DNA from: an uncultured virus (IMG/VR IMGVR_UViG_3300000439_000022)
Lineage: Duplodnaviria > Heunggongvirae > Uroviricota > Caudoviricetes
Direction: 5' to 3' (one strand)
DNA length: 64,000 nt
Virus record (IMG/VR): IMGVR_UViG_3300000439_000022
Made by a program: the position numbers and the translations under genes. The stretch's first letter is position 1. Each line of letters starts with the position of its first letter. The notes under the pieces were generated by a model that was not told the DNA's origin, did not search any database, and was given only the letters and a program-made list of their open reading frames with translations. Shown here piece by piece: positions 36 to 31,742 of this stretch.

Positions 36-1064
36 TTAACCTTTTGTTTTCATTTTACCAGACACATATTGCAAAAGTTGTGATTTATCGTTTGCAACGG
101 TATCAGAGTAAACAGCATCCATAGCCAACTTCAATCCAAGACCAACTTTTTCGTTTTTAAAGCCCAGACTTTCCAGATCATTACCATTAATAGCTAATTG
201 TTTATATGATATCGGATATCTACCATCTTCGAAAAATGGTAATACGTTATCCAATTCGTTCAATATGAAATAACTATCAAACATTGTCGGCGCAATCTTA
301 TTTACACCAAAAACCATCCATTTATCCTCAAGGTCAGTTCTCACAGGTTTATCCATAACCAATTGTAAGGCTTTCATTTCAGCATGAGTCTTCAAATCAC
401 CTTTCATAACTTTCATGAAATAAGCTGCTGGGTCTTTTGTAATTGGTTGTAATAACCAATAAATAAATTCACTTAGTTTGTTGACATGATTAAATGGTTT
501 GAATGAGCCAAGAAACCTGCTATCAAAAATACCTTCATATAAACCAGACTTAACCAACAAAGTGACACCAACATAGGGTGAACCTTTATCTACAATCTTT
601 TGAAACTCTTCTATAACCCTTTCAAACGCTATTGTTTTGATTGAATCGGCGTTTTTTTGAATCATATCAAAAGTATGAGGCTCAATTGTGAATCCAAACC
701 TCGAAGCAAATTGAACCGATCTTAGCATTCTCAAAGGGTCATCAGCAAAAGCTTCAGGATTTGTTAAACGTATAGTTTTTGTTTTAATATCTTCAATACC
801 CTTGTATGGATCAATTAGATTACCTTCAGCATCCTTAGCTATTGAGTTGATAGTAAAATCACGCCTTTCAAGATCCTTTTCAATTGGTAGAGTATGGTCG
901 GAAGTCACATCAAATCCTTTATGACCAGCTAAATTTTTTATCTTAGTCGGCTTAATTGTTTTATTTAAAAAACTAATTATATTTTCTGGTTTATTGTAAA
1001 CAACTCCGTTAATGACATTGAAACCATTTAATTCTAATAGTTGTAATATTTTTTTCTTATCCAT
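36..1064 (-). CDS. cca: C-terminal part of a split class II CCA-adding enzyme (tRNA nucleotidyltransferase)
   Basis: GHKGF..DLERRDFTINS, DPYKGIEDI, DDPLRMLR and ERVIEEF motifs; lacks the GGAVRD/DxD motif, which lies in 2030..2800. Confidence 0.88.
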   Translation of the reverse strand: MDKKKILQLLELNGFNVINGVVYNKPENIISFLNKTIKPTKIKNLAGHKGFDVTSDHTLPIEKDLERRDFTINSIAKDAEGNLIDPYKGIEDIKTKTIRLTNPEAFADDPLRMLRSVQFASRFGFTIEPHTFDMIQKNADSIKTIAFERVIEEFQKIVDKGSPYVGVTLLVKSGLYEGIFDSRFLGSFKPFNHVNKLSEFIYWLLQPITKDPAAYFMKVMKGDLKTHAEMKALQLVMDKPVRTDLEDKWMVFGVNKIAPTMFDSYFILNELDNVLPFFEDGRYPISYKQLAINGNDLESLGFKNEKVGLGLKLAMDAVYSDTVANDKSQLLQYVSGKMKTKG

Positions 1065-2052
1065 ATATTTTTTTCAATTCGTTAATCTTTTCGTTTAAAT
1101 CATCTGATTCCCAAATAACAATCACTCGCCAACCATTTTGAATATAATCAGATATTCGTTTTTCATCCTTATCCCAAATTTGTTTAGCTGTCATTTTAAT
1201 AAAAGGGTGATAATAGTCACCATTATAAAATTTTGGATTACAATGCCAAAAATCACCATTTAGCTCAATAATAATTTTTTTCTCTAAATCAACCTCATCA
1301 CTTGTGTAATTGTTAACGACAGTTTGTTCCGATTCTGTTATTATATTGTTTTCGATTAACATTTGTTTTAACTTATCATGCCAATTTGAATGACCTGCCG
1401 TTTTATTACCATACGCAACAAACCCACCATATTTTTTTATTATTGTTTCAGCTCGTTTTAAATAAGATTGATTCTTTTCACAAGTAGCTAATCGTTTTTT
1501 AATGATTGCCCTTTTTTCTTCTTGTGTTTTTTCATCGTATATTTGTTTTCTTTTTTCAATAATTTGTGGATTATGTGAGGGGTTATTATACTTTAACATT
1601 TCAGATAATTTTTCTAACCTTGAAACATTAGTTGAAGCGACTTTAGCCGCTTTTTTTGCTAATGTTTGATTTTTAAAACCACCCATTCTTTCAATAAATT
1701 TTTCAGAGTAACGTGACCCTGTATTATTGAGTAAGGTTTGCTTACCCCTGTCAGTTACTTTCTTATTAAAATCATCTGGGTATATATTACTTAATGATTT
1801 TTTTAGCATTGGTAGCGACCCAGTACCAATATTATGATATTTTTTTTGTATGGATTTCAAACCAATACCGTTTCGAATCATATCTTTTATATCATCCAAT
1901 ATTCCAGGATTGTTATAATCAAAATACATCAGATATATATCCGCATTTTCGGATAATTTTAATTCGTGTATGTTATGGTAATGCCTACCAACACCTTTAG
2001 CTGTAGTTTCAAAATCACAAATGTGACATTTAACCTTTAAGTTCTCTTTCAT
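1057..2052 (-). CDS. Putative homing endonuclease with C2H2 Zn finger and C-terminal Vsr/DUF559-like PD-(D/E)xK domain, inserted within cca
   Basis: CHIC..H...H at the N-terminus; DE...IIIELNGDFWHCNP...WDKD..R...GWRVIVIWESD at the C-terminus; overlaps both cca halves. Confidence 0.8.
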   Translation of the reverse strand: MKENLKVKCHICDFETTAKGVGRHYHNIHELKLSENADIYLMYFDYNNPGILDDIKDMIRNGIGLKSIQKKYHNIGTGSLPMLKKSLSNIYPDDFNKKVTDRGKQTLLNNTGSRYSEKFIERMGGFKNQTLAKKAAKVASTNVSRLEKLSEMLKYNNPSHNPQIIEKRKQIYDEKTQEEKRAIIKKRLATCEKNQSYLKRAETIIKKYGGFVAYGNKTAGHSNWHDKLKQMLIENNIITESEQTVVNNYTSDEVDLEKKIIIELNGDFWHCNPKFYNGDYYHPFIKMTAKQIWDKDEKRISDYIQNGWRVIVIWESDDLNEKINELKKIYG

Positions 2053-2800
2053 TCATTGAATCGTTATATTCTATAAATATATCGTTTTGACCTAAAGTTA
2101 CCACGATCTGTTTTTTAGCCTTTTCAGTACGTGGTAAAGCAATATCAATTTCTTCACCACCTGGGGGTGTAAATTTGATAATACCAAATGATGCACCAAC
2201 AAGATCCACTTTACCGTATTTACTCAATATTGATTGTAGTTTATCTGAAGGTACACCAGTAATTAAAATATCAAGGTCTTTAGATGTTTTATTCAAGAAG
2301 GTATCTCGTACAGCACCGCCAACTTGATAGATTTTACCACCAGCTTTTGTTACATCCGATTTAAAGGGTAAATCGTTGATATCCACAATTTCTTTTAAAT
2401 TTTTTTTCATAGGTTGATCAGGTTGTCCCACTTCTTTAATTTGGCCTGTTAGTATAAATTTTTCTTCAATTGGTTGCCAATCAGTTATGTTATTTGACAT
2501 GAATGGTTTACCACCATCTTTTCTATTAACAGCTAATGTTACATGTGGTTGAGTATTTTTGGATTCAAACCCAGAAACACCAATTTCCATAACCATATCG
2601 GTCATACCTAAAGATTCAGCGGTAATAGATTGTTCTGTACCAAGCAAATCAAGTTTTTCCTTGGGTAAAGAACCCATAGTTATTGTCATATGGTGAGCAA
2701 TCCATTCCCAACCATCAGGCATCATTTGCTTATACTTTTCAGCCAATAGTTGTCTGGATTTATTATCCAAAATAATCCCTGTATATGATATATTTTTCAT
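2030..2800 (-). CDS. cca: 2H phosphodiesterase (tRNA-ligase CPDase-like) fused to the N-terminal part of the CCA-adding enzyme
   Basis: HHMT and PHVT 2H motifs, then VGGAVRD...KDLDIL and IDIALPRTE; homology ends at RTEK. Confidence 0.85.
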   Translation of the reverse strand: MKNISYTGIILDNKSRQLLAEKYKQMMPDGWEWIAHHMTITMGSLPKEKLDLLGTEQSITAESLGMTDMVMEIGVSGFESKNTQPHVTLAVNRKDGGKPFMSNNITDWQPIEEKFILTGQIKEVGQPDQPMKKNLKEIVDINDLPFKSDVTKAGGKIYQVGGAVRDTFLNKTSKDLDILITGVPSDKLQSILSKYGKVDLVGASFGIIKFTPPGGEEIDIALPRTEKAKKQIVVTLGQNDIFIEYNDSMNERELKG

Positions 2801-2881
2801 AAATTATAAATATGGGCAAAAATACACAATACTCTTCATTTTTACAATCATTTTTATATATTTATTTTAAATTAAAGTATT

Positions 2882-3172
2882 ATGGAAGACATATCACTAT
2901 TCAATAAGTGGGCTTTGAAATATAATTTGAAATGCGAAACGAATAAACAAACATTTCCGTTTAATACGTTTTACCCAGAATTTATAATAAACGATAAGAT
3001 ATATATCGATATTTATGAAGATTGGGAAATTTCTGAAGATTATTTCAACATTTGTGAAGCATTTAAAAATAGACATGGTATAATAATCATGATACCAATA
3101 GATGGTCTATCAGAATTGTTTAATTATGTAACACCAGAAGATATTGAAAATAAATTTGATATTAAATTTTAA
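2882..3172 (+). CDS. hypothetical protein
   Basis: ORF divergent from cca, ATATTTAT motif upstream. Confidence 0.55.
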   Translation: MEDISLFNKWALKYNLKCETNKQTFPFNTFYPEFIINDKIYIDIYEDWEISEDYFNICEAFKNRHGIIIMIPIDGLSELFNYVTPEDIENKFDIKF

Positions 3173-3585
3173 TGATTTACCTTAATACAACAAATAAGAC
3201 TTTCATGCGTAAATTTTTGCGTAGAAATCCTGACAGAAATAAATTCAATAACATATTTTCTGGTAACTATTATATTCTTAACATATATGAATTTCATATA
3301 TTAGTTGAATACACACAAAACAAATATGGGGAATTTTTGGGTTTTGAAACTCAAAAACTTAAATCATTAATCAAATTCATAGATAAACTATATTTTGTTT
3401 GTGGTATTGATTTTATCAATAATAGCTGGTCATTGGATTATATATTTTTTGATGCACCACTATCAAAAACATTTTTGATGAAGAAAACAGTTATGCATGA
3501 ACTGGATTATTTCTTCACAAATATAAAGATAGATAATATGAGATCAAATTCCTATAATATAACAATATTTAACCCTGAATGTTGA
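3172..3585 (+). CDS. hypothetical protein
   Basis: ORF coupled by TAATG overlap. Confidence 0.55.
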   Translation: MIYLNTTNKTFMRKFLRRNPDRNKFNNIFSGNYYILNIYEFHILVEYTQNKYGEFLGFETQKLKSLIKFIDKLYFVCGIDFINNSWSLDYIFFDAPLSKTFLMKKTVMHELDYFFTNIKIDNMRSNSYNITIFNPEC

Positions 3586-3821
3586 TTTAATCAAAATTTT
3601 TTACTATATTTGTTTTTTAAATCCAAAACCATGGAAAAAGAAACTATTAAAATTAAGTTAAAACAACTTAATATCACTGACGATACTATCAATTCAATTC
3701 ATGAATTTATTGTATCTTTGCAAATTAAAGATGAAGAAATTGAAAAGTTGCTTGCCCTAATTGAAAAAGTTGGGTTACAACACTATATTCGTGAATTTAT
3801 GAAAAAAAATATTAATCTATA

Positions 3822-4451
3822 ATGAGTTTTGACAATAATGAAAAAAAGCTGAGTATCTTCAGGAAGATATTTTTGTGGTGGAAGTTCGAAGGTAAATATT
3901 ACCATAAGGATTTATATCAAGGCATTAGAAATATTATACGTTGGTTCCCTGTAATTTGGAAAGATAGGGACTGGGATGACCATTATATATGGCAAGTAAT
4001 GATGACAAAATTAACATTCCAAGCTAAGTACATTCGTGAAAAGGGTTTACATGTTGATAATGTTCGTGATGCTGAAAAAATGGAGTTGTGTGTTAGATTG
4101 ATGAAGCTCATATCTGATGAATTTTATACTGGCGAATATATGGATTATCATAAATCAAAATTTCATTTTGATCCAGTGACCAAGGAAGAACTTGATGAAA
4201 TGTCTGAAGACAAAAGGAAATTGTATGAGGATTGTTCAACATTAAGGATTGAAGAGATATGGGAAAAGTATGATGATTACTTTAAAAAGTATCCACATGC
4301 CTATAAAGAAGTTACAAAGACAGATAAATATATCTTTGATAATAAATCCAAACAAACTATTGCTATGAATATGGGATATTATTTACACAATAAAGCAAGG
4401 CGTATTTTATTTACGCTATTAGAACGTAATATAGAAAGTTGGTGGGATTAG
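3822..4451 (+). CDS. hypothetical phage protein
   Basis: WKDRDWD and C-terminal WWD motifs; tight gene packing. Confidence 0.65.
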   Translation: MSFDNNEKKLSIFRKIFLWWKFEGKYYHKDLYQGIRNIIRWFPVIWKDRDWDDHYIWQVMMTKLTFQAKYIREKGLHVDNVRDAEKMELCVRLMKLISDEFYTGEYMDYHKSKFHFDPVTKEELDEMSEDKRKLYEDCSTLRIEEIWEKYDDYFKKYPHAYKEVTKTDKYIFDNKSKQTIAMNMGYYLHNKARRILFTLLERNIESWWD

Positions 4452-4911
4452 CATATGTCTTCAAAGATAAATAAGTACAAAGTTGGTGATAAAATAGAAT
4501 TCTATTTTCTGGATGTTCTAAAATGGGGTATTGTTAAAGAAATTAACACTAAGGATAATACTGTCAGCATAATTTCAACCAATAATATTATATATGTGGC
4601 TCATGCCACAGAAAAAGATTCAAAATTTTGTTTTTTGAAAAATAATTAATACTTTTGTAGTATTATGGAAAATGATTTATTTTTGATGTGTGAATGTCAC
4701 ACAGAATCTATGCAGGTTACATTTGAAGAAGAACATAACGAATATTGGTTTGCATATTGGGGTTATGGTTTTAATAATAAAAAATCTTCATTATGGCATC
4801 GAATCAAGAACGCTTATTTGTTATTAAAGACAGGTACGTTACATAAAGATTTCATCATACTTGACAAAGATAAAGCACAACAATTAGCTGACTATATTAA
4901 TAAAAATAACA

Positions 4912-5997: not shown

Positions 5998-6772
5998 AAC
6001 ATCTATAAAAAATGTTGATGCGTTTCAATACTTTTTCGAAAAATATACTCGTTTTACTCGTTCAAGTGGAAGTAATATAATTTCTAAAATAGTTAATTTA
6101 AATTTCTCAGAAATAGCAATGTTATATGAACTTAATAATAGCATGTTCAAAGATTATTTCGATCATACAGCATTGAAAATGTTTGCCAAGTATAGAGATA
6201 ATATTAATTTTAATGTTCAAATACAGAAAACCACATTATCAGTTTTTGAAATGACAATTTCAATTGATAACTTTGATAAAAATGATGTTGATGACATTGA
6301 AGAATTATACTCTGAATTTGGAGCCGAAAACTACCCAGCTTACCAATATAAAAATATTGTTGTAAAAGATGAAAATATCGATGGTATGTTTATTGTAAAT
6401 TCAGGTTTAGTTGAAGACTATAATAGTAATGATGGAACACTGGAATTGATATTTTATTAAATAAAATTATTATATGTTAACATTTAGAAAACCAAAGGAT
6501 GTTGATGAAGCTTTTGTGCTTCTCGAAAATAGTGGTTTAAAGGTATTATGGGATATTTGTAATCCCAATAATATTGAATTGAGTAAACAATATTTTGAAA
6601 TGTATAAGCCAATAGTGTTCATATATAAAAAAAACAAATTGGTTGGTGCTGCTCATGGTAAATTTGGTAATCCAGAGGTTATTGGGTTGGATGATGTACC
6701 TGAAACGAAAAAATATTCAAAAAGTGAATTAACCGAAATTGATTTAGCTATAAGACAAATTGAAATATTTTA

Positions 6773-8086: not shown

Positions 8087-8088
8087 AT

Positions 8089-8310
8089 ATGTCTTATAAA
8101 CTTGATAAAGTTAATACAAATGTAAAATATAAACATTTTAAAAAAATTATTTCGATGAATAATAATACTGGTGAATCAATCGATTTCAAAAAAGTAAAGG
8201 AAGCTGCGTCATATTATGGTGTAAGCGCCTCTTCAATTTATCAAATATTAAGTAAACAAAGAGAATATATTTATTCATCCAAAGGAAAAATTAATTTTAT
8301 ATATGAGTAA
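8089..8310 (+). CDS. small NUMOD1-like HTH protein
   Basis: F..VKEAASYYGVSASSI pattern. Confidence 0.5.
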   Translation: MSYKLDKVNTNVKYKHFKKIISMNNNTGESIDFKKVKEAASYYGVSASSIYQILSKQREYIYSSKGKINFIYE

Positions 8311-9486: not shown

Positions 9487-10075
9487 TACACAAAGTGAGT
9501 TTGTTTTAGCTGGTAGAAAAACTGAAGAAAAATTTGTTAATGATTTCGAACAATACGGTGATTATAAAATATCAACGCCAACTCAAGATAGACATGAACA
9601 CTGGGATATTGAAGTAACCCCTTACGATGATTTTCCAAATGAATTAATTATCAAAGATAAAATTAAATATTATTTTGATATTAAATCCATAAAGTCATTT
9701 AATTTCTACGATAAAGGAACACATGAATATATTGATGGTAAAACAGATAAATATCAATATATTGAATGGACAAACCCAGTAGGTAAACCAGGTTATATAC
9801 ATAGTTCTGTAGATTATATAATATTTGAAACTGAAGAAAATTGGCTTTTCATCAAAACAGAAGTTTTAAGGGATTACGCAAGACCTTTCTTTACTGGAGA
9901 TATATGTATATTCGGAAATGTGTTACATGGCGTAAATAAAAGATCTGATGATAACCGCAAATTTAAATATTTCAGAAATCCAGACGGTTCTAAATTCACT
10001 AACAAAGAAGAGATAATGATTTTTAGAACAAGCGAACTTGAGCAAATAACAACATATAAATTGAAAAAAAAATAA
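9470..10075 (+). CDS. putative PD-(D/E)xK nuclease
   Basis: E..F, HWD and FDIKS motifs. Confidence 0.5.
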   Translation: MKNMGNTQSEFVLAGRKTEEKFVNDFEQYGDYKISTPTQDRHEHWDIEVTPYDDFPNELIIKDKIKYYFDIKSIKSFNFYDKGTHEYIDGKTDKYQYIEWTNPVGKPGYIHSSVDYIIFETEENWLFIKTEVLRDYARPFFTGDICIFGNVLHGVNKRSDDNRKFKYFRNPDGSKFTNKEEIMIFRTSELEQITTYKLKKK

Positions 10076-10078
10076 ACA

Positions 10079-10147
10079 ATGAAATTTAATAGTAACGAAA
10101 GAAATATCTGGTTTACATCAGATACACATTAATTTTTCATAAAAATC
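10079..10147 (+). pseudogene. truncated N-terminal copy of the metallophosphoesterase gene
   Basis: MKFNSNERNIWFTSDTH-stop, followed by out-of-frame TTT CAT AAA AAT (FHKN) matching SHKN of the downstream copy. Confidence 0.8.
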
Positions 10148-10180
10148 AGTATATTTATATGTGTATAAAACTATATAAAT

Positions 10181-11068
10181 ATGGAAAAATCATTAAATAG
10201 AATATGTAAAACTTGTGATAAAGTTTTAAAATATAAATCAATTGAAAGTTTTAAATGTTCTGAGAAAGAAGGAACAGAATGTAGGAGCTGCTCAACAAAA
10301 AAATATGTTAAAAGAATTGGTGATGCGAATTATTTGTTAACTGATAATTTAGATACTTATTATTGGGTTGGTTTTATATTAGCTGATGGTCACATCGAAG
10401 ATGGACGGTTATCCATTACCTTATCAGGTAAAGATAAAGAACATTTAAATAAATTATCTGAACATTTATATGTTAAAACACAAGATAAAATTAATAATAA
10501 AAAATATTCGGCTTGCATACTTTCCTTAATGCATAAAGATATTATAAATATTTTTGTTGATCGTTTTGATATTAAATCAAATAAAACTATAAATCCACCA
10601 AATATAAATGTTTTCAAAAACTTGGATTTTGATAAATTATTTAGTATATTTATTGGGTTTACTGATGGTGATGGAAATATTCGTAAATTACATAATAGAT
10701 GCGATTTTCATATAAGAATTAAAACGCATAAAAATTGGTTGCCTGTTTTAGATTATTTTAATAATGTTTTGGATTTAGGTGGACATACAAGAATTAATAA
10801 ATTGGGATATGCTACTTTAGAAATTAGTAATAGTGTATTTTGTAAAAAAATTAAAGAAAAGGCTATTGGTTATAATTTACCTTTCTTGGAAAGAAAATGG
10901 TCTGAAATTGATTTATCCTTTGTTGGTAGAAATGAAAAAGCTGATCAGAATAAAATTGCTATTTTTAGAATGTTAAATGAGGGTTTATCACATAAAGAAA
11001 TTTATAAAAAATTGAATATAAGTAAATCATCCTATTATCAATTAATTAAAAGAAATAATATATGTTAA
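10181..11068 (+). CDS. double-motif LAGLIDADG homing endonuclease with C-terminal HTH
   Basis: YWVGFILADG and FIGFTDGDG motifs. Confidence 0.88.
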   Translation: MEKSLNRICKTCDKVLKYKSIESFKCSEKEGTECRSCSTKKYVKRIGDANYLLTDNLDTYYWVGFILADGHIEDGRLSITLSGKDKEHLNKLSEHLYVKTQDKINNKKYSACILSLMHKDIINIFVDRFDIKSNKTINPPNINVFKNLDFDKLFSIFIGFTDGDGNIRKLHNRCDFHIRIKTHKNWLPVLDYFNNVLDLGGHTRINKLGYATLEISNSVFCKKIKEKAIGYNLPFLERKWSEIDLSFVGRNEKADQNKIAIFRMLNEGLSHKEIYKKLNISKSSYYQLIKRNNIC

Positions 11069-11679
11069 AATTTAAAACAAATACGTCCGAGGCTTCTGCA
11101 AGAAATTTGTGGTTTACCTCGGACACGTGAACACATTATTCTCATAAAAACTTAATTAAAAGCTTAACGACTTGGGAACGTGGTGCCATTCGTGATTTTC
11201 AATCATTGGATGAACATAATCAAACACTTGTTAAGAATATTAATAATACGGTAAAATATGATGATGTTTTATTCATTCTTGGTGATATTGCGTTCGGTGG
11301 TTTTGAAAACGTAAGAAAATTTATGGATCAAATACATTGTCAAGAAAGATATTTGATATTGGGTAATCATGACTCACATATAAAGAATAATCGTGATAAT
11401 TTACAAAATTGCTTCACAAAAGTTTCTAAACAAGAAGATGTTATTATAGATGATGACTTATTCGTTTTATTCCATTATCCTATTCTTGAATGGGAAGCGT
11501 GTCATAAAGGGAGTTATCATCTATATGGTCATCAACATAATTTGCCACAAAACCGTTTTAGCAACGGAAATGGTAGGACGATGGATTGCGGTCTTGACGG
11601 ACATCCAGAATTTCGTCCATACCATTACAATGAAATTATTGAACTACTCAAAAAAAGAGAGATAAAGGTTCATCATTAA
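11062..11679 (+). CDS. calcineurin-like metallophosphoesterase with an in-frame TGA at 11128-11130
   Basis: WFTSDT*THY, LGD, LGNHD, HYP and LYGHQH are all in one frame. Confidence 0.8.
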
Positions 11680-12554: not shown

Positions 12555-12791
12555 GTGAATAATCAAAAATTGAAATGTATAAAAAAAGAAGTATTTCTTA
12601 TTAAAGATGGTGAAAAAATAAAGAGATTTGATTCATTGTTAGAATGTGCTAAACAATTTAAAATCTCACCAAGTCATCTATCTAAAATGATTAAACAAAA
12701 TAAATTAATAAATGGTTTATTATTTGTTTTAGGTGAATCTTCTTTTAAAGAAACTCCATATAAAGGAAAATCAAATTTTATAAATAAATAA
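12555..12791 (+). CDS. small NUMOD1-like HTH protein
   Basis: FDSLLECAKQFKIS pattern. Confidence 0.45.
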   Translation: MNNQKLKCIKKEVFLIKDGEKIKRFDSLLECAKQFKISPSHLSKMIKQNKLINGLLFVLGESSFKETPYKGKSNFINK

Positions 12792-13799: not shown

Positions 13800-13800
13800 T

Positions 13801-18255: not shown

Positions 18256-18582
18256 ATGAAAACACTTTTATTTATTCCCTTGTTGTTTATAACAATATTA
18301 TGTTATTCACAATCAAAACTTGCCGTTCCAAATGCATTTACACCAAATAATGATAATGTGAATGATAGATTCAAAATCGTGAATTTAACATCAGAGAAAA
18401 TATTAGATTTCTGCGTGTTTAACCGTTCTGGTAGATTGATATATCGATCAACAGATAATTCTGGTTGGGATGGCTCCTATAATGGTATTCTTCAAGATAT
18501 GGGTTCATATTACTATCAAATCCGATATACATCTAATGATAGTTTATATATGTTAAAAGGTAATGTAATTCTAATACGATAA
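18256..18582 (+). CDS. stand-alone T9SS type B sorting domain (CHU_C) with signal peptide
   Basis: Signal peptide, then VPNAFTPNNDNVND, FNRSG, WDG, G.YYY and KG.V.LIR. Confidence 0.85.
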   Translation: MKTLLFIPLLFITILCYSQSKLAVPNAFTPNNDNVNDRFKIVNLTSEKILDFCVFNRSGRLIYRSTDNSGWDGSYNGILQDMGSYYYQIRYTSNDSLYMLKGNVILIR

Positions 18583-18732
18583 ATAAAAATATAACGATAA
18601 TATATCAAAGTCCTTTATGATGGAAGAAAATATAAAATTTGGTGGCGGTTCATGGACATGCAAAAATGTGGTATGACTATATATAGTTCGAGCATAATTC
18701 ACGATTGTAAACCTTTATTTAAAAATGAAAAT

Positions 18733-18852
18733 ATGGAAACATTTAATTATGAGTATGATCCTAATATGGAAAGATACATTTCAAGATTAGTTAAGGAATG
18801 GAAGGAACATAAAAAAATTATTTTATGCGTTGACTTTGACGATCAAGGGTAG
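18733..18852 (+). pseudogene. truncated N-terminal copy of the HAD gene at 19599
   Basis: METFNYEYDPNMERYISRLVKEWKEHKKIILCVDFDDQG* closely matches the start of 19599..20048. Confidence 0.88.
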
Positions 18853-18883
18853 AATTTTGTCCTTTTCCCATATATTTATTGTT

Positions 18884-19594
18884 ATGAAAGCAATATATGG
18901 AATAGTAAACAAAATCAACGGTCATAAATATGTGGGATCGGCTGTAAACTTTTATAAACGTAAAACAATACATTTACGACAATTAAAAAAAGAAATACAC
19001 CATTCCGACTATCTGCAAAGAGCCTGGACTAAATATGGTGAGGATAATTTTGAATTTATCATACTTGAAAAGGTCGATAAAAAAGAGGATTTATTGATTC
19101 GTGAACAATGGTGGATCGATAACTCAAACAGCGAATATAATGTTTGTAAAGTTGCTGGCAGTTCGTTAGGCGTTAAACGTAGTGATGAAACAAAGGAAAA
19201 ATGTCGATTGGCACATCTTGGTGAAAAACACCCAGAATGGCGAAGAAAATTAAAATCCGAAGCACAAGGTGGTGAGAAACATTGGCAGTATGGTAAAAAA
19301 ATGCCAGATGAAGTTAAACAAAAAAAATCGGAAAGTATGAAAAAGTTTTTTAAAACAAACACACATCCAATGAAAGGTAAAAAAAGTACTTTAACTGAAC
19401 AAAGCAAAGAATCAATGATTGATAAATTATCAATACCAATTCAACAATATACTAAAGAAGGTGAATATATACGAGATTGGAAAAGTGCAAAAGAGGCTGG
19501 AACTGAATTAAATATATTTCCCACAAACATTACAACTTGTTTGAAGGGTAAAGTTAAAACCGCTGGAAAATTTATTTGGAAATATAAAAATTAA
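18884..19594 (+). CDS. GIY-YIG homing endonuclease with NUMOD3/NUMOD1 domains
   Basis: AIYGI...YVGS..R...H...E..N; AGSSLG.KRSDETKEK; WKSAKEA; ATG at 18884 is the likely start. Confidence 0.9.
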   Translation: MKAIYGIVNKINGHKYVGSAVNFYKRKTIHLRQLKKEIHHSDYLQRAWTKYGEDNFEFIILEKVDKKEDLLIREQWWIDNSNSEYNVCKVAGSSLGVKRSDETKEKCRLAHLGEKHPEWRRKLKSEAQGGEKHWQYGKKMPDEVKQKKSESMKKFFKTNTHPMKGKKSTLTEQSKESMIDKLSIPIQQYTKEGEYIRDWKSAKEAGTELNIFPTNITTCLKGKVKTAGKFIWKYKN

Positions 19595-19598
19595 TACT

Positions 19599-20048
19599 AT
19601 GGAAAATTTTAACTATGAATATCATCCGAATATGGAAAGGTATATTGTAAGGCTTGTTAAGGAATGGAAGGAACATAAAAAAATCTTGTTGGCGATTGAC
19701 TTTGACGATACACTTTCACCCTGGAAATTTGATGACTTTAACTATGAAGAAGTATTCAAATTGGTTAGGGAAGCTAAGGAACTTGGTGCTTATATTGTAA
19801 TTTTTACTGCATGTAAGCCAGATAGATATGATTACATTAAAGATTATTGTTTAACTAAAGGTGGGTTTGAGATTGATGGTGTTAATGAAAACGTTATTGA
19901 ATTACCATATGGTAATAATAGAAAAATATATTATAACCATTTGTTGGATGATCGTACAGCATTGTTACCTGCAATGGCAATATTATCCATTGCCATGATG
20001 CGTGTCAAGACTGATGGTAAAAATGGCGGTGATGATTTTGATGTTTAA
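19599..20048 (+). CDS. HAD-superfamily phosphatase
   Basis: IDFDDT, FTAC, K and LDDR motifs. Confidence 0.8.
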   Translation: MENFNYEYHPNMERYIVRLVKEWKEHKKILLAIDFDDTLSPWKFDDFNYEEVFKLVREAKELGAYIVIFTACKPDRYDYIKDYCLTKGGFEIDGVNENVIELPYGNNRKIYYNHLLDDRTALLPAMAILSIAMMRVKTDGKNGGDDFDV

Positions 20049-24069: not shown

Positions 24070-24076
24070 ATAAAAT

Positions 24077-26176: not shown

Positions 26177-26241
26177 TTTGGAATAATCAAAAATGTTTAT
26201 TAATTTTGTCCTACCTACTTAAAGGTGGGACATTTTTTTTT

Positions 26242-26718
26242 ATGAAAAATAGAATATTTACACCCCCAATGAATATTGCAGATAGATACCATAATATTAA
26301 ATCTGTATTTCTTGGTGGGAGCATAGAACAAGGGACAGCCGAAGACTGGCAAAAATATGTTAGTGGAAAATTACAAAGTTCTTTTAACGTATTTAACCCA
26401 AGAAGGAGTGATTGGGATTCCTCTTGGGAACAAAATATAACCAACGCACAATTCTTTCAACAAGTGGAATGGGAATTAAATGCTTTGGAACATTCTGATT
26501 ATATAATCATGAATTTCATTCCTGAAACAATGTCACCCATATCTTTACTTGAACTTGGAAAATTTGCTCAACCTGGTAAAATGTTTGTTTGTTGTCCAGA
26601 AGGTTATTGGCGCAAAGGTAACGTTGACATCTTTTGTTCAAAGTACAATATAGAAATGTTTGATAACATCGACCAATTAATTAACACATTATTTAATTTA
26701 GACCATGATAGAAAATAG
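26242..26718 (+). CDS. nucleoside 2-deoxyribosyltransferase-like protein
   Basis: FLGGSI, NPRR, QVEWE and SPISLLELG motifs; ATG at 26242 preferred. Confidence 0.8.
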   Translation: MKNRIFTPPMNIADRYHNIKSVFLGGSIEQGTAEDWQKYVSGKLQSSFNVFNPRRSDWDSSWEQNITNAQFFQQVEWELNALEHSDYIIMNFIPETMSPISLLELGKFAQPGKMFVCCPEGYWRKGNVDIFCSKYNIEMFDNIDQLINTLFNLDHDRK

Positions 26719-27124
26719 AAAAGCTAAATTTGATTACGAATTTCTGTTTACAGAAACAGCAGGTATCGTATTGCAAAGTTCTGAAATCAAACAATTAAAA
26801 GATGGCAAAGCATCTTTGGTCGATGGCTATTGCTATTTCGATGGTAATGAGTTATATGTTAAAAACTTTAATATCAATGAAGTAAAAACGGCTTATTCTC
26901 ATGATCCAAAGAGAGATAAGAAGTTATTGTTGAATAAAAGTGAATTAAGGAAGTTTAAGCGTGAATTAGATGCCAATCTTACAATTATACCATTAAAGGT
27001 ATTTAGGAACGATAATGGCCTATTTAAGATGGTTATTGCGATGTGTAAGGGTAAGAAGAATTATAATAAGAAAGAGGCGATTAAAGAGAGAGATATAAAA
27101 CGTGATCTTGAAAGAAATTATTAA
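26705..27124 (+). CDS. smpB: SsrA-binding protein
   Basis: NRKAKFDY, AGIVL..SEIK, R.KKLLL and KGKK motifs. Confidence 0.9.
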   Translation: MIENRKAKFDYEFLFTETAGIVLQSSEIKQLKDGKASLVDGYCYFDGNELYVKNFNINEVKTAYSHDPKRDKKLLLNKSELRKFKRELDANLTIIPLKVFRNDNGLFKMVIAMCKGKKNYNKKEAIKERDIKRDLERNY

Positions 27125-27709
27125 TTTTTCAGAACATTGAAAAATTGATACATATTTATTTTCAAAATCACATTACTTAAATGAGAATTTTTCTTATCAA
27201 TATAAAAGGAGCTGGTGTTGACCTTACAGCTGGCAAATTAACAAAGGATCAGGTTAAAAATTGGGATAAGATACAAGCTAACCCAGAATTAATAGATGAC
27301 AATAATCCTATCTTTGAGTTATATGGGACACTTGTTGAAACTGCAACAATTGAGGTTATAGATGATGAAGGTGAGATTGTTGATGTTTATGGGTATAATG
27401 ATTTATTATCCGAAGAGGTTGAAAATATGAACCTAAAATCAGGTTCTCATTATGTAAAAGAAACATATCTTAAAGGTTTATTCCATTCTTTCGAATTATT
27501 TTTGGACAACAGCGAAAGATTTGACATTGATTTGATTACCTTGAAGACGAAGGAATATAAGGGTGAGCAATATATTTGCGCTATGGATTACGATGGTGAT
27601 CCACTCGAATCAATTGAATCCATAACAACTGGTCACGAAAAAAATATTCAAAAAATTATTTGTTAGTTCGAATTAATTGTTTTATCTTTGTCTTATAAAC
27701 AGACAATTT

Positions 27710-28057
27710 ATGATGCGATTAATAGAATTTAAAAAGATGCAAGATCTCTGGTTTGCTATACTACCAGAGTATATTGAGCAAGGTGGCGATTTTAACGACT
27801 GTCTTATGGTCGATGGTGCCCCAGAAATGCTTGATCGATTATCCAATAGTACTGATGAAATTACATTATTACTTTCCACTGAAGAAATTCCGTCTGATTG
27901 TGTATTGTCAAAATACGATGAGGAAATGGATTGGGGTTATTACCTATGCAAATTTCCTAACGATAAAAAAGGCAAACATGTCGCTCTTTGTCCTGTCAAT
28001 TCATTTGTTTGGGTCGGTAAACACCCAAATAAAATTTATATACGTATAAAATCATAA
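27710..28057 (+). CDS. hypothetical protein (DUF6717-like)
   Basis: MVDGAPEMLD...LCP...P..IY. Confidence 0.5.
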   Translation: MMRLIEFKKMQDLWFAILPEYIEQGGDFNDCLMVDGAPEMLDRLSNSTDEITLLLSTEEIPSDCVLSKYDEEMDWGYYLCKFPNDKKGKHVALCPVNSFVWVGKHPNKIYIRIKS

Positions 28058-28059
28058 CT

Positions 28060-28755
28060 ATGCAACGCATAAAAATATCTGCAAGACCAGATTATATTAA
28101 TAAACTGGAAAGTCTGTCATTTGAATTTCATTCCCTTGACAACAAGTATTGGAATGAAGATGCTTATTATAAATTCACAATGGATGAAATAAACACCATT
28201 GAGAATGCTTCAAATGTTGTTTTTGATCTATGTTTACAGGCCGTTCAACACGTTATTGATAATAATTTATTTGATAAATTATTCATCAATCCAGAATTGG
28301 TGCCAATGATTATACGATCATGGGACAATGAAGAACCAAGTTTTTATGGCCGTTTTGACTTTGCAATGGGCAAGGATGGAATACCAAAGATGCTTGAGTT
28401 CAATGCCGACACCCCAACGTCTTTATATGAAGCCGCTGTTGTCCAATGGTATTGGTTAAACGATGTTTTTCCTGATAATGACCAATTCAACTCCATGCAT
28501 GAGAAGTTATTGAACTATTTCCAGGGTTGTCATCAATATTTCCACGGTCAAACATTGCATTTTGCTTGTATTAAAGATAGTATTGAGGATTTTACAACAA
28601 CGGAATATATTCGTGATGTTGCATCACAAGCAGGTTTGAATCAAAACAAATTTATGTTGATGAGCCTGTTGAGCAAGGTAAAATTTCAGATAGCTGGGGT
28701 GATACTATTGGTTATTGGGTTAGATATAAACGAACCTATAGTAATGGTAAAGTAA
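28060..28755 (+). pseudogene. glutathionylspermidine synthase-like ATP-grasp gene, C-terminally truncated
   Basis: YW.E..YY, YGRFDF and LEFNADTPTSLYEA present; homology stops near AGL, C-terminal KLYPWE and KP..GREG motifs absent. Confidence 0.75.
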
Positions 28756-29448
28756 CTTATGTAGAAAAAGATTATAAATAAAATTTATGAGACTATTTAA
28801 CTTGAATCAAGTTTGCACAATGCGAACAATAATTGACGAGTACAATGCAGATTTTGAACATATTACTAAACCAACTAAACCTGGATTTTTTGCTCGTTTA
28901 AGAGGTGAAAAACCTCAGCCACAAGATCATTATGAATATTACAAAAATGGTTTATCTGGTCAAATATTAGGTTATGAACCAGACATGATAATCGATTCAG
29001 ATAAGATTGATGATTTTGTTAAATCACATAATTCTTATGTTGACCCATCTGATAAAAATGTATATTATAAACCACATATTTTTATGCGATTCTCCAACGG
29101 AAATACTCGTAACAAGTATTTTGATACAGTTGAAGACATGACTTCCTATATTACCTCAACTCAAAATAAATACCCAAATATCCAAATCCTTTAAAAAGTG
29201 GATAACTAATTTTGTTTCTATCAATTATTATTAATAAATTTGTAAAAAAATATAAAGATGAAAACTATTCTGGATCTTGAAAATGATATACCTGCGGATT
29301 TTGTTGAAATGGTCAAAAAGATGCTTAAAACTGATGTGAGAACTATAGTATTATCACATAAGGCGTTTGACATAGAAGAAACAGACATTTTTGGTAAAAC
29401 CATCAAATACGCTTGTATGCATGGGATAACTGTTAATATTGTAGGTAG

Positions 29449-30086
29449 TTAAGTTAATACGACATGTTTGTCTTTCTTAATAAACCTATTTTGATAACTA
29501 CATAGTGGCTTTAGATTAGTGTAATGATTTAAAGCTATTATGTCGTTCTCATTTTGCGCTGTGGCTAATGGTATTACATGATCGATATCCCATGTTTTAT
29601 TAGGGGTGTAGATATTGTCTTTTGGGTTTCCGTAATTGTCCCAAGACATCCAGGGCTCAAATAGATTCTCAAGATGTGTTTTAAACACATCAAATGTGCA
29701 ACCAAGAATTGTTTCAGATTTACTATTCTTTTTATATCCACCTTTTTTAATTGCATTGACAATTGAACATCTCATATTGGCTTTTAAATTAAACAGAGGA
29801 TCTTTTTCTTTTCGGCTACTATTATAAGCATTACGATAAGCTCTGATTTTAAGTTTATTATCAGATCTATATTGGGCTTCTTTTACCTTAATATGTTCTT
29901 TGTTAAGTTCGTTATATTTAGTTTGCGTTCTTTGTTTTTCTCACGATATTCCTTGGTATAGCTTTTCAATTTATCAATGTTTTTATCGTAATATTTTTTA
30001 TCTGATTTTTTCTTTTGTTCTTTAAGCGCTTCTTTGTTTTTTTTACGGTACTGGCGCATATATTCGTTTTTTAAAGTTTTACTCAT
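29449..30086 (-). pseudogene. HNH endonuclease gene split by a -1 frameshift
   Basis: ORF 29883..30086 continues in the -1 frame (TKYNELNKEH...KDPLFNLKANMR) into LGC...WDNYG...WDIDHVIP...HYTNL. Confidence 0.75.
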
Positions 30087-30719
30087 AAAGTTGTTTTAAT
30101 CGAAATTTTTAATTATTTTTGTAACCTAAAGATAAATAATATGAAATGTATCAAAGTACAAGACACTTACAAGCGTGTAAGTAATGAAGTTGCTGACAAT
30201 GAGGTTAGCTTTGGCCGTGCTACCTATGCACCAAAATCAGAATGGAAGAAAAATGTCCGTGAAATTTCTAAACCAGCTACTGTTTCTGTTGCCGATGAAA
30301 AAGGTAAGGAAACAAAATCAAAGAAAGCGGAAAAAGCTGCTAAGCTGAAAGAAAAACAGCACCCAAAAGAATATTCTGACAATATACTAAAATAACATTT
30401 CTAATATGCTACCATCAGATATGTTTGATGAAAACGGTTTATTTAAACCATTAGTTTTTGAGCCATACAAAAACCCTAACGAAAGGTATTATTCATGTAC
30501 AGCTACAAAAACAATTAAAGCAACAAAAAATGCAATATCTATTATTGTATATGGCTTTACCAAATCTGTAAAAGTTATACCATTATCAAGTATAACTTCT
30601 TTCAGTCTTGATGGTATGTTTGGTGTTAGAACTGTACGAATCAAAACATTAACCGAAAGTTTTGATTTCATGTTAAGCAAAAAAGATGCTTACGATTTAC
30701 AAGATTTTATATTTTAATT

Positions 30720-31742
30720 ATGGCATACGATAGCAAAGCTGATACACTCGAACATATTCGCAAAGTATCACAAAATTTAAACAATTTTTCAAAAGAATTA
30801 TTAGTAAGGGCTAATATTCATGATGAATCTAAGTTACATTCACCAGAAAAGGAATTATTCGATGAGTTAACTCCAAGACTGTCAAATATGACATATGGTT
30901 CAGATGAATATAAAGCCAGTCTTAAAGAATTAGAAGTGGCATTAGACCACCACTATGCTAATAACTCTCATCACCCACAATTTGTGGAGTTTAATGAATT
31001 GTGGATGGATATTTCTGGTTATGTTGGTATATATCAAATATCATCACGTGGTAGGGTTAAGCGATTATCAACAATAATCCATAGAGAATCACAAGGTGAT
31101 TTTATTGGTAAGGAAATGATAATGAAAGCACATGTAACACCAAAAGGTTATGCGAGAATTAGATTACAAACTAATAATATTGGTAAAAACTTTTTCATAC
31201 ATTCATTGGTTGCTAATGCTTTTCTACCATCACCACCAAATGATAGATATCAAGTTAATCATAAAAATGGCAGAAAGCTTGAAAATTACATTGAAAACCT
31301 GGAATGGTTAACACCATCAGAAAATTTACAACATGCCTATGATACTGGTTTAGCCACGCCAAATGTAAAATATGTTGTTCAATGTAATGAATTAGATTTT
31401 ATTACATTTGGTACTGAGAAAATGGAGAAGGAATTAATTTCTCGTGGGTATTTAAATGCTTCTTCGGCTGGTATTTGGAGATGTATAACATCTGACGATC
31501 CAACAAACACACATTTAGATCTAACATTTAAATCATGGAATATTGATGAATATCGAGAATTAAATAGCCCAGTAAGTGATATGACATTGCAAGATATTGT
31601 TGAAATGTATTGTGATTGGAAAGCGGCTATTGAAAGAACAAAAGATGGTGATTTTAATAAAAGTTTGGAAATTAACGAAAAGCGTTTCAGTATAAGTCCA
31701 CAATTAATTCAAATATTCAGAAACACATATGAAAGAGGTTAA
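30720..31742 (+). CDS. DUF5662-like HD-type protein with an in-frame NUMOD4-HNH insertion
   Basis: HIRKV/HDESK/HHY..NSHHP, then W.DI.GY.G.YQIS and VNHKNG...N...NLEW, then DIVEMYCDWKAA. Confidence 0.8.
   Translation: MAYDSKADTLEHIRKVSQNLNNFSKELLVRANIHDESKLHSPEKELFDELTPRLSNMTYGSDEYKASLKELEVALDHHYANNSHHPQFVEFNELWMDISGYVGIYQISSRGRVKRLSTIIHRESQGDFIGKEMIMKAHVTPKGYARIRLQTNNIGKNFFIHSLVANAFLPSPPNDRYQVNHKNGRKLENYIENLEWLTPSENLQHAYDTGLATPNVKYVVQCNELDFITFGTEKMEKELISRGYLNASSAGIWRCITSDDPTNTHLDLTFKSWNIDEYRELNSPVSDMTLQDIVEMYCDWKAAIERTKDGDFNKSLEINEKRFSISPQLIQIFRNTYERG

Follow-up and report, generated by a model that had tools for sequence, protein, structure and literature searches.

Four homing endonucleases at enzyme active-site codons of an uncultured tailed phage, with a candidate natural stop-hop in a metallophosphoesterase gene

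Results and Discussion

The window, by which we mean the whole 64,000-nucleotide stretch of DNA analysed here, is from an AT-rich tailed phage, probably one of Flavobacteriia. It carries four homing endonuclease genes of four families, each at the catalytic-motif region of an enzyme gene. The best explanation of the whole, to which we give a probability of about 0.7, is that the four endonucleases entered catalytic-motif codons and that the mobile cassettes carry their own non-splicing repair. In one of these genes, a metallophosphoesterase (MPE), ribosomes appear to hop over a 6-base insert containing a stop codon, thereby keeping the enzyme working. A sequence-only reading of this DNA had placed the endonucleases in active-site regions; all four ORFs lie where it had located them, and stubs and junctions map the insertion points in the MPE, HAD, cca and DUF5662 genes to catalytic-motif regions. 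It had also named four routes (gene fission, N-terminal replacement, domain fusion and possible recoding), each of which was matched by tool results, the LAGLIDADG case being N-terminal replacement and recoding together. Its view that the lineage tolerates splicing-free homing stands as regards the lack of splicing, but, rather than being merely tolerated by the lineage, the repairs seem to come with the mobile cassettes.

Intron and intein searches

That the endonucleases come without any intron or intein was checked with Rfam intron models and Pfam Hint/intein families, both with negative outcome. At the gathering score Rfam gave no match across the whole window. With the cut-off relaxed to E<=10, weak matches numbered 5, 2, 5 and 6 in the four sub-regions searched; group I and group II intron families were not among them, and no Hint or intein family was matched by 13 proteins in Pfam at E<=0.01. 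By computation, splicing would appear to be excluded for the four insertions. Rfam intron models are known to miss divergent introns with long ORFs, and outside its ORF the cca insert has flanks that add up to ~185 nt; both points favour the view that at least one of the four is an atypical intein or group I intron, self-splicing but cryptic, that the libraries miss. We nevertheless hold this to be very improbable. Other phages conserve the cca tails at the protein level, and these tails are bounded by a stop and an ATG; a HINT fold would not fit into their 29 and 42 aa, and no nucleophile is conserved, the tail opening with A, S, I or L. Moreover, at both HAD and MPE a complete copy with an ATG of its own follows downstream, whilst the HNH insert is in frame across 65 listed clusters, which introns need not be, and has no Cys/Ser/Thr-type junctions.

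The metallophosphoesterase locus

The features of this locus are as follows.

10079..10132 (+), MPE copy A, a 17-codon 5' stub with S-D-T-H as its last residues and TAA at 10130-10132
10181..11068 (+), LAGLIDADG homing endonuclease gene, two motifs and a C-terminal HTH
11062..11127 (+), MPE ORF1, 22 codons, ending at the proposed take-off codon ACG 11125-11127
11085..11124 (+), 5' hairpin, arms 11085-11092 / 11117-11124, 8 bp with 6 G-C, abutting the take-off codon
11128..11133 (+), proposed hop coding gap, stop TGA 11128-11130 and landing codon ACA 11131-11133
11134..11679 (+), MPE ORF2, remainder of the metallophosphoesterase, motif I His to stop

The LAGLIDADG ORF, which matches LAGLIDADG_3 and LAGLIDADG_1 (E 1e-4 to 4e-4) and HTH_23 in Pfam, sits between the 17-codon stub and a full MPE copy whose D-T-H codons read ACG TGA ACA CAT. 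The stub resembles the N-termini of two uninterrupted relatives (L006 and L008), and decayed MPE similarity runs past it to ~10150. ORF1 consists of a new N-terminus and a replacement of the parental ...WFTSDT. Its ATG lies within the LAGLIDADG ORF but in a different frame, giving an overlap of 7 nt in the window; the corresponding overlap in L090 is 22 nt. The claimed position of the LAGLIDADG at the DxH motif is borne out by a stub that ends ...SDTH and a full copy that carries a stop at the D-T-H codons, and the order of 5' stub, endonuclease gene and complete copy agrees with N-terminal replacement. Comparison of 21 distinct genes backs recoding as a further route at this site. Stop-codon reassignment was set aside in favour of a ribosomal hop of 5-6 nt, the better reading of that comparison; in the window TGA serves as a normal stop, at the end of 14/95 ORFs.

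The site fits a natural programmed "stop-hop" that travels with a homing cassette, and would be a minimal counterpart to T4 mobA/gene 60. The cassette would comprise the LAGLIDADG gene, the new start and N-terminus, the replacement ...WFTSDT codons and the 6-nt insert. It would have entered at the D-x-H codons, leaving the old 5' end as the 17-codon stub, and we infer that the insert ACG TGA ACA destroys the endonuclease's own target. In the proposed hop, peptidyl-tRNA-Thr would leave ACG while the stop codon occupies the A site, the G+C-rich 5' hairpin would refold behind the ribosome and pull the mRNA forward, and the tRNA would re-pair at the next Thr codon. Decoding would then resume at His (CAT 11134), with S-D-T-H restored.

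Insert-bearing relatives

Uninterrupted MPE homologues read FTSDTHYSH or FMSDPHYDH at this position. Among 80 unselected related loci, 79 are uninterrupted and only L007 carries an insert (ACG TA ACG CAC); its downstream frame is shifted, so readthrough cannot rescue it. Pattern scans gave 21 distinct phage MPE genes with a 5- or 6-nt insert at the D-x-H codon in the order Thr codon, TAA or TGA, second Thr codon, a signature that is partly imposed, since the patterns forced F-T-S-D-T, a TAA or TGA stop and His-Tyr/Phe, and the first of them also TCGGACACG. The landing triplet was left free and is ACN in 20/21, the exception being ATT in L121. The Ser codon, for which TCN was allowed, is TCG in 20/20 sites of a table covering 20 insert-bearing genes, to which L126 (6-nt gap, take-off ACT, stop TGA, landing ACT) was added as the twenty-first. 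The gap measures 5 nt in 17 of the 21 genes and 6 nt in the other 4. Downstream of it the full MPE frame is open in all 21, and before it an ATG-started frame ending ...TSDT is kept.

Strong 5' hairpins are present in most insert-bearing genes, that of the window folding at -19.7 kcal/mol (z -2.6). Mean folding energy was -21.0 kcal/mol over the first 8 sites against -5.9 over 62 distinct uninterrupted genes (Mann-Whitney p 2e-6), and a homologous LAGLIDADG lies directly upstream in 8/20 insert-bearing against 1/79 uninterrupted loci (Fisher p 6e-6), p-values that overstate independence because the sites are related. None of the 62 uninterrupted genes folds below -10.6 kcal/mol; the mean over 20 insert-bearing sites is -18.9, including four weak hairpins of -7.6 to -11.6 kcal/mol (L111, L115, L116 and L089). 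One stem position covaries, from C-G to A-U, and the 5' arm occurs in two different reading frames. LAGLIDADG homologues were found directly upstream of insert-bearing MPE genes in 7 contigs besides that of the window, and a second MPE stub was seen in L131.

Downstream of the insert, related pairs give dN/dS of 0.14 and 0.25 with synonymous differences of 0.61-0.97, from which this part of the MPE frame is judged to be under purifying selection. Synonymous differences in the 20-22 codons upstream are just 0.13-0.15, which could reflect recent transfer rather than RNA-level constraint. Between the window and L007, 80/90 columns are identical in the block that begins 18 nt ahead of the ATG and ends with the landing codon, compared with 102/157 past the landing codon and 9/25 before that block. 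The upstream peptides of insert-bearing genes have no conservation beyond the enzyme motif, and therefore give no evidence of a nascent-peptide signal of the gene 60 kind.

How the stop is passed, if at all, can be read in other ways. By sequence alone a hop looks no different from skipping the stop and decoding the next Thr codon afresh, and the 6-nt class is in frame. The stop might thus be passed with no re-pairing of the tRNA, by readthrough for 6 nt and a +2/-1 shift for 5 nt, leaving one or two extra residues in D-x-H. We think this unlikely: one conserved site would need two different mechanisms, the insert-bearing sites have no slippery heptamer, and Asp and His are separated by precisely one residue in 79/79 uninterrupted relatives. 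As a hop requires, moreover, a Thr codon precedes His in 20/21 insert-bearing sites. Slightly less likely still, the insert-bearing genes could be dead and make no full-length enzyme, the insert being a scar or immunity mutation left after endonuclease attack. An in-frame or frame-shifting stop within an essential metal-binding motif would suit such a fate, as would the decayed stub of the window and the rarity of the insert among unselected relatives (1/80). Against it, 21 distinct genes retain both the complete open frame past the gap and the ATG-started frame before it, the Thr landing codon and hairpin are kept, and downstream dN/dS stays at 0.14-0.25 despite near-saturated synonymous sites.

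Finally, the 5-6 nt might be removed from the RNA by hairpin-promoted micro-splicing, editing or polymerase slippage of an unknown kind, or the stub might be an exon 1 spliced past the landing codon. A strong hairpin does adjoin the site, and upstream in the window and L131 a stub ends exactly at D-T-H. We give this very little credence, as there is no Rfam intron match, the possible splice junctions have neither an intron-terminal G nor a GUGYG start, no homopolymer would permit slippage, and a motif search found the stub in just 2/13 insert-bearing loci examined. To our knowledge, no such RNA mechanism is known in phages.

Comparison with known bypass systems

As described in the Manning & Atkins preprint (10.1101/2022.08.31.505936), the T4 gene 60/MobA cassette has the same order as the MPE cassette: an endonuclease gene, an N-terminal extension overlapping its ORF out of frame, replacement parental codons and then a bypass element. 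Both have a stop adjoining the take-off codon, a matched landing codon, a 5' stem-loop upstream of take-off and copies that retain the bypass without the endonuclease. They differ in gap length (5-6 nt in MPE; 50 nt in gene 60, 20 in one clade), endonuclease family (LAGLIDADG; HNH) and host gene (metallophosphoesterase; topoisomerase). Unlike gene 60, the MPE has neither a stem-loop for take-off inside its gap nor a Shine-Dalgarno-like element, and a nascent-peptide signal is not evident; its hairpin abuts the take-off codon where that of T4 lies 9 nt upstream, and its parental 5' part is a useless stub where that of T4 is a second subunit. The two share no sequence homology. The preprint states that the gene 60 bypass cassette "remains unique".

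Synthetic "stop-hops" in Escherichia coli, in which 9 nt specify one residue, are described in PMC5009743 and 10.1101/2024.12.09.627546, and ACG TGA ACA has exactly their form. In synthetic constructs, according to the same sources, unassisted stop-hops are low-level, which counts against an MPE hop, and the 2016 review (PMC5009743) gives natural in-frame stop hopping as without known occurrence. The MPE sites differ in being natural, in occurring in 21 genes, in having also a 5-nt out-of-frame form and in their conserved hairpin. A phage gene with a 10-nt gap likewise has a short frame-disrupting insert, flanks that match uninterrupted homologues and a slow-to-decode A-site codon; there, however, a rare sense codon is the trigger, a regulatory role is proposed and there is no endonuclease link.

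The HAD locus

18733..18852 (+), HAD copy A, a 39-codon 5' stub with D-F-D-D-Q-G as its last residues and TAG at 18850-18852
18884..19594 (+), GIY-YIG homing endonuclease gene, with GIY-YIG, NUMOD3 and I-HmuI-type NUMOD domains
19599..20048 (+), intact HAD-family gene (copy B and remainder), DFDDT present

ORF 18830/18884-19594 matches GIY-YIG (4e-11), NUMOD3 and an I-HmuI NUMOD-like domain in Pfam and is flanked by a 123-nt direct repeat (18721-18843 and 19587-19709). The stub is homologous to the intact copy up to and including the DFDD codons and no further, in agreement with a GIY-YIG insertion at the HAD DxD motif, and N-terminal replacement is again indicated by a 5' stub, an endonuclease gene and a complete copy with its own ATG. 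The cassette, a GIY-YIG gene with a replacement 5' end, would have inserted right after the DFDD codons, leaving behind the stub of 39 codons together with a gene that is intact. Identity between the stub and the 5' end of the gene in a relative is 93%, as against ~72-75% for the remainder of the gene, a contrast for which this insertion model does not fully account.

A split cca gene

2030..2800 (-), cca piece 1, 2H-phosphoesterase-like N-terminus and first half of the nucleotidyltransferase head
2033-2119 (-), added C-terminal tail (CTE) of piece 1, its last 29 residues
1057..2052 (-), free-standing Vsr-like endonuclease ORF (weak assignment), 331 aa
36..1064 (-), cca piece 2, N-terminal tail, then second half of head and body
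939-1064 (-), added N-terminal tail (NTE) of piece 2, ~42 residues

A Vsr/DUF559-like nuclease had been said to split cca. The split holds: in Pfam the PolyA_pol head domain is divided, ORF 2030-2800(-) covering profile positions 1-74 of 126 and ORF 36-1064(-) positions 82-126 plus PolyA_pol_RNAbd, whilst the closest relative (L099) has an unsplit cca of 719 aa in a single ORF, against which the break maps between PRTEK and xxAGHKGFDV. The Vsr label is weaker. ORF 1057-2052, which overlaps the two pieces by 23 nt and 8 nt, has no Pfam match; a PDB sequence search gave Vsr chains at E 0.27-0.34 (residues 257-316), it matches the PHROG "endonuclease" phrog_13076 (1.8e-5), and no close relative was found in viral_contigs beyond the contig of the window itself. 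Gene fission is supported further by the same tails in other phages. The CTE is also present in P0121-P0123, with a variant form in P0124, and the NTE is 77-93% identical in P0241-P0243 as against 56-75% for their whole proteins.

The Vsr-like gene would thus have cut cca into two ORFs, adding the 29-aa CTE and ~42-aa NTE, and we infer that the two polypeptides reassemble, like those of MobE-split nrdA. In the Aeh1 MobE-split nrdA and MobA-split topoisomerase, as presented in 10.1101/2022.08.31.505936, a free-standing endonuclease gene also cuts a catalytic domain, and both pieces gain CTE/NTE tails conserved wherever the split occurs; for cca the host is a tRNA nucleotidyltransferase, the endonuclease Vsr-like and the association of the pieces putative. 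The "fractured genes" of Dassa et al. (2009; PMC2677866) likewise have a Vsr-like free-standing endonuclease between enzyme gene halves, but with a split intein, whereas the 29 + ~42 aa tails of cca have no HINT match. A literature search found no report of a split cca.

An HNH endonuclease within a DUF5662 protein

30720..31742 (+), DUF5662 protein with an in-frame I-HmuI-like NUMOD4-HNH in a loop
roughly 30984-31571 (+), HNH insert in the DUF5662 protein, ~residues 89-284

The Pfam match of ORF 30720-31742 to DUF5662 (1e-28) falls into two parts, and NUMOD4 and HNH_3 are matched between them, in keeping with the proposed in-frame fusion of a NUMOD4-HNH within a host protein; the HNH is placed between NSHHPQ and MTLQDIVEMYCDW. 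Domain fusion as a route is corroborated by the same DUF5662::HNH architecture, in frame, in 65 protein clusters among the matches listed, the window's own included, and by invariant DUF5662 host residues that are kept despite the insert. The I-HmuI-like HNH would be translated in frame as a domain within a permissive loop. The ShiLan domain of a phage methylase, as reported in PMC11855218, is similarly an in-frame insertion, neither intron nor intein, for which looping out of the host fold is predicted; its HNH, however, lies in another frame, whereas that of DUF5662 shares the frame of the host and belongs to its polypeptide.

The phage and its endonuclease genes

The window has a G+C content of 28-35% and contains 95 non-overlapping ORFs of at least 80 aa, 90 of which lie densely packed on the + strand. 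Its sequence is identical to parts of a 120-kb IMG/VR contig and a 144-kb metagenome contig, and the nearest named relatives of its metallophosphoesterase (MPE) are those of Flavobacterium phage immuto and Cellulophaga phages phi17:2 and phi4:1, at 38-40% identity. The window therefore derives from a large tailed phage, probably with Flavobacteriia as its host group. A nucleotide search with the first 12 kb found no match among GenBank phages. Four host genes carry an endonuclease:

1057-2052, Vsr-like endonuclease ORF splitting cca
10181-11068, LAGLIDADG endonuclease gene at the MPE gene
18884-19594, GIY-YIG endonuclease gene at a HAD-family gene
about 30984-31560, NUMOD4-HNH insert in frame within a DUF5662 gene

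The sequence-only reading had assigned these places and domains, and both were borne out by Pfam and PHROG, the 'Vsr-like' label being the sole weak one. The LAGLIDADG gene contains LAGLIDADG_3 at residues 60-96 and LAGLIDADG_1 at residues 158-227 (both with Pfam scores near cut-off), matches phrog_4645 'endonuclease' (1.7e-13) and would by its domains be a two-motif LAGLIDADG homing endonuclease. The GIY-YIG gene combines its catalytic domain (Pfam, 4e-11) with NUMOD-type DNA-binding modules and a match to phrog_314 'homing endonuclease' (1e-32), consistent with a GIY-YIG homing endonuclease. The HNH insert has the NUMOD4 and HNH fold (Pfam) of an I-HmuI-type HNH homing endonuclease. The Vsr-like ORF is similar to PDB Vsr chains only weakly (E 0.27-0.34, over residues 257-316), has no Pfam match and hits phrog_13076 'endonuclease' at 1.8e-5; close relatives were not found in viral contigs beyond the window's own.

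That none of the four relies on splicing had also been claimed, and the sequence searches support this. Rfam covariance models gave no match of any family over the whole window at the gathering score, and at E<=10 the weak matches in the four regions (five at 1-3000, two at 9900-11400, six at 18500-19750 and five at 30600-31850) included no intron family, and group I and group II introns were rejected on this basis. Inteins and split inteins were rejected likewise, as Pfam identified no Hint/intein family in 13 proteins and the junction residues are variable or non-nucleophilic. Junctions were mapped against endonuclease-free relatives for cca, MPE, HAD and DUF5662.

A candidate stop-hop in metallophosphoesterase genes

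Upstream of the LAGLIDADG gene lies a stub, the leftover 5′ end of the host gene: a 17-codon ORF from ATG 10079 to ...WFTSDTH, then TAA, whose sequence matches the N-termini of two uninterrupted relatives (loci L006 and L008). A new start, ATG 11062, overlaps the last LAGLIDADG codons out of frame and opens 22 codons to ...WFTSDT, followed by TGA and then ACA CAT, after which the rest of the enzyme continues in the same frame as the upstream codons. Alignment shows that the two-codon insert is absent from MPE homologues, and a G+C-rich hairpin of 8 bp ends exactly at the Thr codon preceding the stop. We propose that the ribosome skips the insert, leaving the Thr take-off codon, passing the stop and landing on a second Thr codon (ACG TGA ACA in the window). 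More broadly, we would give odds of about two in three (0.65), judged from sequence comparison, that natural programmed stop-hops of 5-6 nt form a family in phage MPE genes, each driven by a refolding hairpin and borne by a LAGLIDADG cassette with the insert as its immunity mark.

Other explanations for the interrupted frame fare poorly. An intron joining the stub to the gene was rejected from the sequence for lack of usable splice-site bases, and most insert-bearing genes have no stub (a second one was found at L131, another MPE locus). Global reassignment of TGA is ruled out since TGA terminates 14 of the 95 ORFs and the standard code yields 86% coding density; moreover, no tRNA gene, suppressor tRNAs included, was detected in the window. 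Readthrough of the stop can be judged from related loci fetched by protein profile without selection, of which 79/80 are uninterrupted. The exception, L007, encodes an enzyme 67% identical to the window's with the same N-terminus and hairpin, reads ACG TA ACG CAC and resumes in another frame. Therefore, readthrough cannot serve there. A shift of the Thr-tRNA by 5 nt to the second ACG, as the hop proposes, can restore the L007 frame.

Pattern scans of viral and metagenome contigs raised the count to 21 distinct sites, 20 in the main tabulation plus L126 (take-off ACT, stop TGA, landing ACT, 6-nt gap). The patterns required F-T-S-D-T, a stop of the given class and His-Tyr/Phe; they placed no constraint on the landing triplet, on whether Ser was encoded by TCG, on the hairpin, on an upstream ATG or on the downstream frame. 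The census is biased toward the starting motif, and its sites are related to each other.

Table. Composition of the 21 insert-bearing MPE sites
Gap length: 5 nt, 17 sites; 6 nt, 4 sites
Take-off codon: ACG, 8; ACC, 6; ACT, 7
Stop codon: TAA, 13; TGA, 8
Landing triplet: ACT, 16; ACA, 2; ACG, 2; ATT, 1

Thr codons occupy both take-off and landing positions at 20/21 sites, the remaining one (L121) landing on ATT, a pattern consistent with the same tRNA serving both positions as in programmed bypassing. The stop next to the take-off codon is TAA or TGA throughout, but the patterns demanded TRA; L007, the sole site found without such a pattern, has TAA. Ser is encoded by TCG at all 20 tabulated sites. 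Two further matches were set aside as chance: L123, one of 17 matches to a general 5-nt pattern, and L107, the single match of the hop pattern in a scan of genome contigs, which lies in a high-GC MAG and is not an MPE gene.

The hairpin is predicted at -17 to -25 kcal/mol in 16 of the 20 sites and is weak in the other four, compared with an average of -5.9 in uninterrupted genes, so that a candidate stimulatory mRNA structure is present 5′ of the hop, its effect on hopping being putative. One stem position has changed in a compensatory manner, and the 5′ arm persists although it is read in two different frames; stem pairs were judged from a pair table, as the loops are too unequal in length for an alignment-based covariation test. 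The downstream MPE frames have neither a start codon of their own nor the Asp of motif I. Their dN/dS is low (0.14 for L004 versus L096, 0.25 for L087 versus L090) and they are therefore likely to be translated. Once the gap is taken out, the sequence is colinear with uninterrupted homologues, and the frame beyond it is under selection. Four uninterrupted genes (L021, L022, L045 and L047) have an 8-bp hairpin ending at these Ser-Asp codons too, A+T-rich and weaker (about -9 to -11 kcal/mol), and a pre-existing palindrome may have been the origin of the hop hairpin.

Association of the insert with the LAGLIDADG cassette

Homologues of the window's LAGLIDADG gene (34-43% identical) are found directly upstream of, and in the same orientation as, the MPE gene in seven further insert-bearing loci. 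This amounts to 8/20 insert-bearing loci, the window included, versus 1/79 uninterrupted loci. The one is L008, where the homologue lies at 1709-2398 and the MPE motif is VCSDPH; a substitution, not an insert, may confer immunity there. The window and L007 share 89% identity in a block that starts 18 nt upstream of the ATG and runs through the landing codon, compared with 36% and 65% in the flanks, and downstream third codon positions match in only 16/52. Therefore, L007 probably keeps the right end of the cassette and has lost the endonuclease gene.

The layout consists of an endonuclease gene, an overlapping out-of-frame start, a new N-terminus, replacement of the parental codons and a putative bypass ending at the landing codon. 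The same layout is reported for MobA elements in the preprint by Manning & Atkins (10.1101/2022.08.31.505936), the MPE version being built of unrelated parts with a gap tenfold shorter. By homology it falls outside that group, since the parts here are LAGLIDADG and MPE, not HNH MobA and topoisomerase. The MPE element thus seems to work like MobA/gene 60 without being a member of that group.

Two further LAGLIDADG observations concern these loci. L007 (3015-3884, - strand) and L006 (3018-3884, - strand) share another LAGLIDADG gene, with 79% identity between the contigs, in antisense orientation at the MPE 3′ end, one MPE host gene of the pair having the hop insert and the other not. On L132, the contig of L110, the LAGLIDADG homologue contains four in-frame TGA codons, and the hop site there uses TAA; either the gene is decayed or this phage reads TGA as sense.

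The other three host genes

The closest relative of the window's cca, L099, lies on the same contig as L006 and encodes a single 719-aa protein in which the CCA-adding enzyme is preceded by a 2H-phosphoesterase-like domain and followed by a C-terminal HAD-like domain. Relative to L099, the break in the window gene falls between ...PRTEK and (K)xxAG(H/Y)KGFDV, with zero host residues lost. Tails have been added, 29 aa on the first piece and about 42 residues on the second, after which the parental PRTEK segment is weakly echoed. Among the best six relatives of the N-terminal piece, three (P0121-P0123) are 252-259 aa long, 53-69% identical overall and end in nearly the same tail, one (P0124) has a variant tail, and two (P0125 and P0126) are uninterrupted and read straight through. 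Moreover, the first 60 residues of the second piece retrieved three proteins whose tails are 77-93% identical, versus 56-75% for the whole proteins. The split with its tails therefore recurs in several phages, and conservation is higher in the tails than in the enzyme, as would be the case for tails that move together with the endonuclease cassette. The same pattern is described for the MobE/nrdA and MobA/topoisomerase splits in 10.1101/2022.08.31.505936, and by analogy the two cca pieces would associate. Just before window position 1, on the window's own contig, a second LAGLIDADG gene of 334 aa (L098 4026-5030, minus strand relative to cca) parts the cca body from a 176-aa HAD-like ORF (L098 5079-5609). 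As the latter is the C-terminal domain of the same protein in L099, cca is in three pieces.

At the HAD locus direct repeats of 123 nt, with 80% identity, lie on either side of the GIY-YIG gene. The left one is a stub of 39 codons with homology ending right after the DFDD codons and the right one is the start of the intact gene; three relatives are single uninterrupted genes without GIY-YIG upstream. This locus requires no recoding. The stub (18721-18843, compared with L104) shares 93% identity with the HAD gene's 5′ end on the L007 contig, against 72-76% in other shared regions, a difference that the insertion model does not account for and that points to recent exchange of this short segment.

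The HNH insert leaves its host protein in frame, with HNH-free homologues aligning to both ends. Of 120 proteins listed, 65 (the window's own included) combine DUF5662 with NUMOD4 and/or HNH_3 at 96-100% query coverage and 42-61% identity, and the remaining 55 have plain DUF5662. When 18 chimeras were aligned with 10 plain proteins, the insert fell in one and the same loop throughout and every invariant DUF5662 residue was retained. The flanks of P0002 (chimera) and P0076 (plain) are nearly identical, a presence/absence polymorphism. In an AlphaFold model (pLDDT 90.5) the two ends together form a helical host domain and the insert is beta-rich, with I-HmuI (1u3e, E 5e-10) as its top structural match by Foldseek. 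A search of five related contigs for DUF5662 gave two weak partial matches. The ShiLan insertion (PMC11855218) is a related case.

Proposed mechanism and significance

We hypothesise that each cassette enters at a double-strand break made by its own endonuclease in conserved catalytic codons, and that each would carry whatever keeps the host gene useful. Near the 5′ end of a gene the cassette would bring a fresh 5′ end, the old one staying behind as a stub and also serving as a promoter source; in mid-gene it would bring tails (cca) or remain in frame (DUF5662). In MPE, substitution at the target codons would harm the enzyme and the self-immunity mark would therefore be an insertion that the ribosome hops over. 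Refolding of the hairpin, with its 5′ arm already emerged, would pull the mRNA forward a few bases, a driver also proposed for T4 gene 60.

To our knowledge, there are very few cases of efficient programmed bypassing, namely T4 gene 60 and its homologues, yeast mitochondria and candidates in Streptomyces phages. A full-text literature search, with subscription journals outside its coverage, returned no report of bypass in a metallophosphoesterase gene, of a natural stop-hop, of a split cca or of DUF5662 insertions. A 2016 review (PMC5009743) describes natural stop-hops as long expected, with none known. If our reading is correct, the MPE site would be the first of these and would have reinvented the T4 mobA/gene 60 solution independently and in minimal form. 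Cassettes of several endonuclease families would then routinely bring a non-splicing repair kit, which may take the form of protein tails, a fresh 5′ end, a domain kept in frame or a bypass. Endonuclease-plus-bypass cassettes, with the bypass as proposed here, would have arisen more than once, which would support bypass inserts as a form of self-immunity for homing endonucleases that target unchangeable codons. The 21 diverged natural sites, with their 5-6 nt gap, simple hairpin and three take-off codons, make up a small mutable system, a candidate for asking why a ribosome leaves a codon and lands on the next matching one. On the practical side, insert-bearing MPE genes are annotated as truncated or split and so the enzyme is missed, as is the case for split cca.

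The window may be read as a compact catalogue of homing-element life inside catalytic codons without introns or inteins, and it holds further ORFs of possible relevance. Two small ones of 73 and 78 aa (8089-8310 and 12555-12791, both +) resemble by eye the DNA-binding tails of homing endonucleases and may be remnants of such genes; neither has a significant family match. A 108-aa ORF on the minority strand (29449-29775, -) has an HNH-like motif by eye (DIDHV...N...N) without a Pfam or PHROG match. An ORF at 26705-27124 (+) resembles by eye the tmRNA-binding protein SmpB, and L007 likewise has an SmpB-resembling ORF (1968-2399) immediately before its insert-bearing MPE gene. Lastly, a further GIY-YIG ORF is located at 51285-51863 (+; Pfam 2.4e-6).
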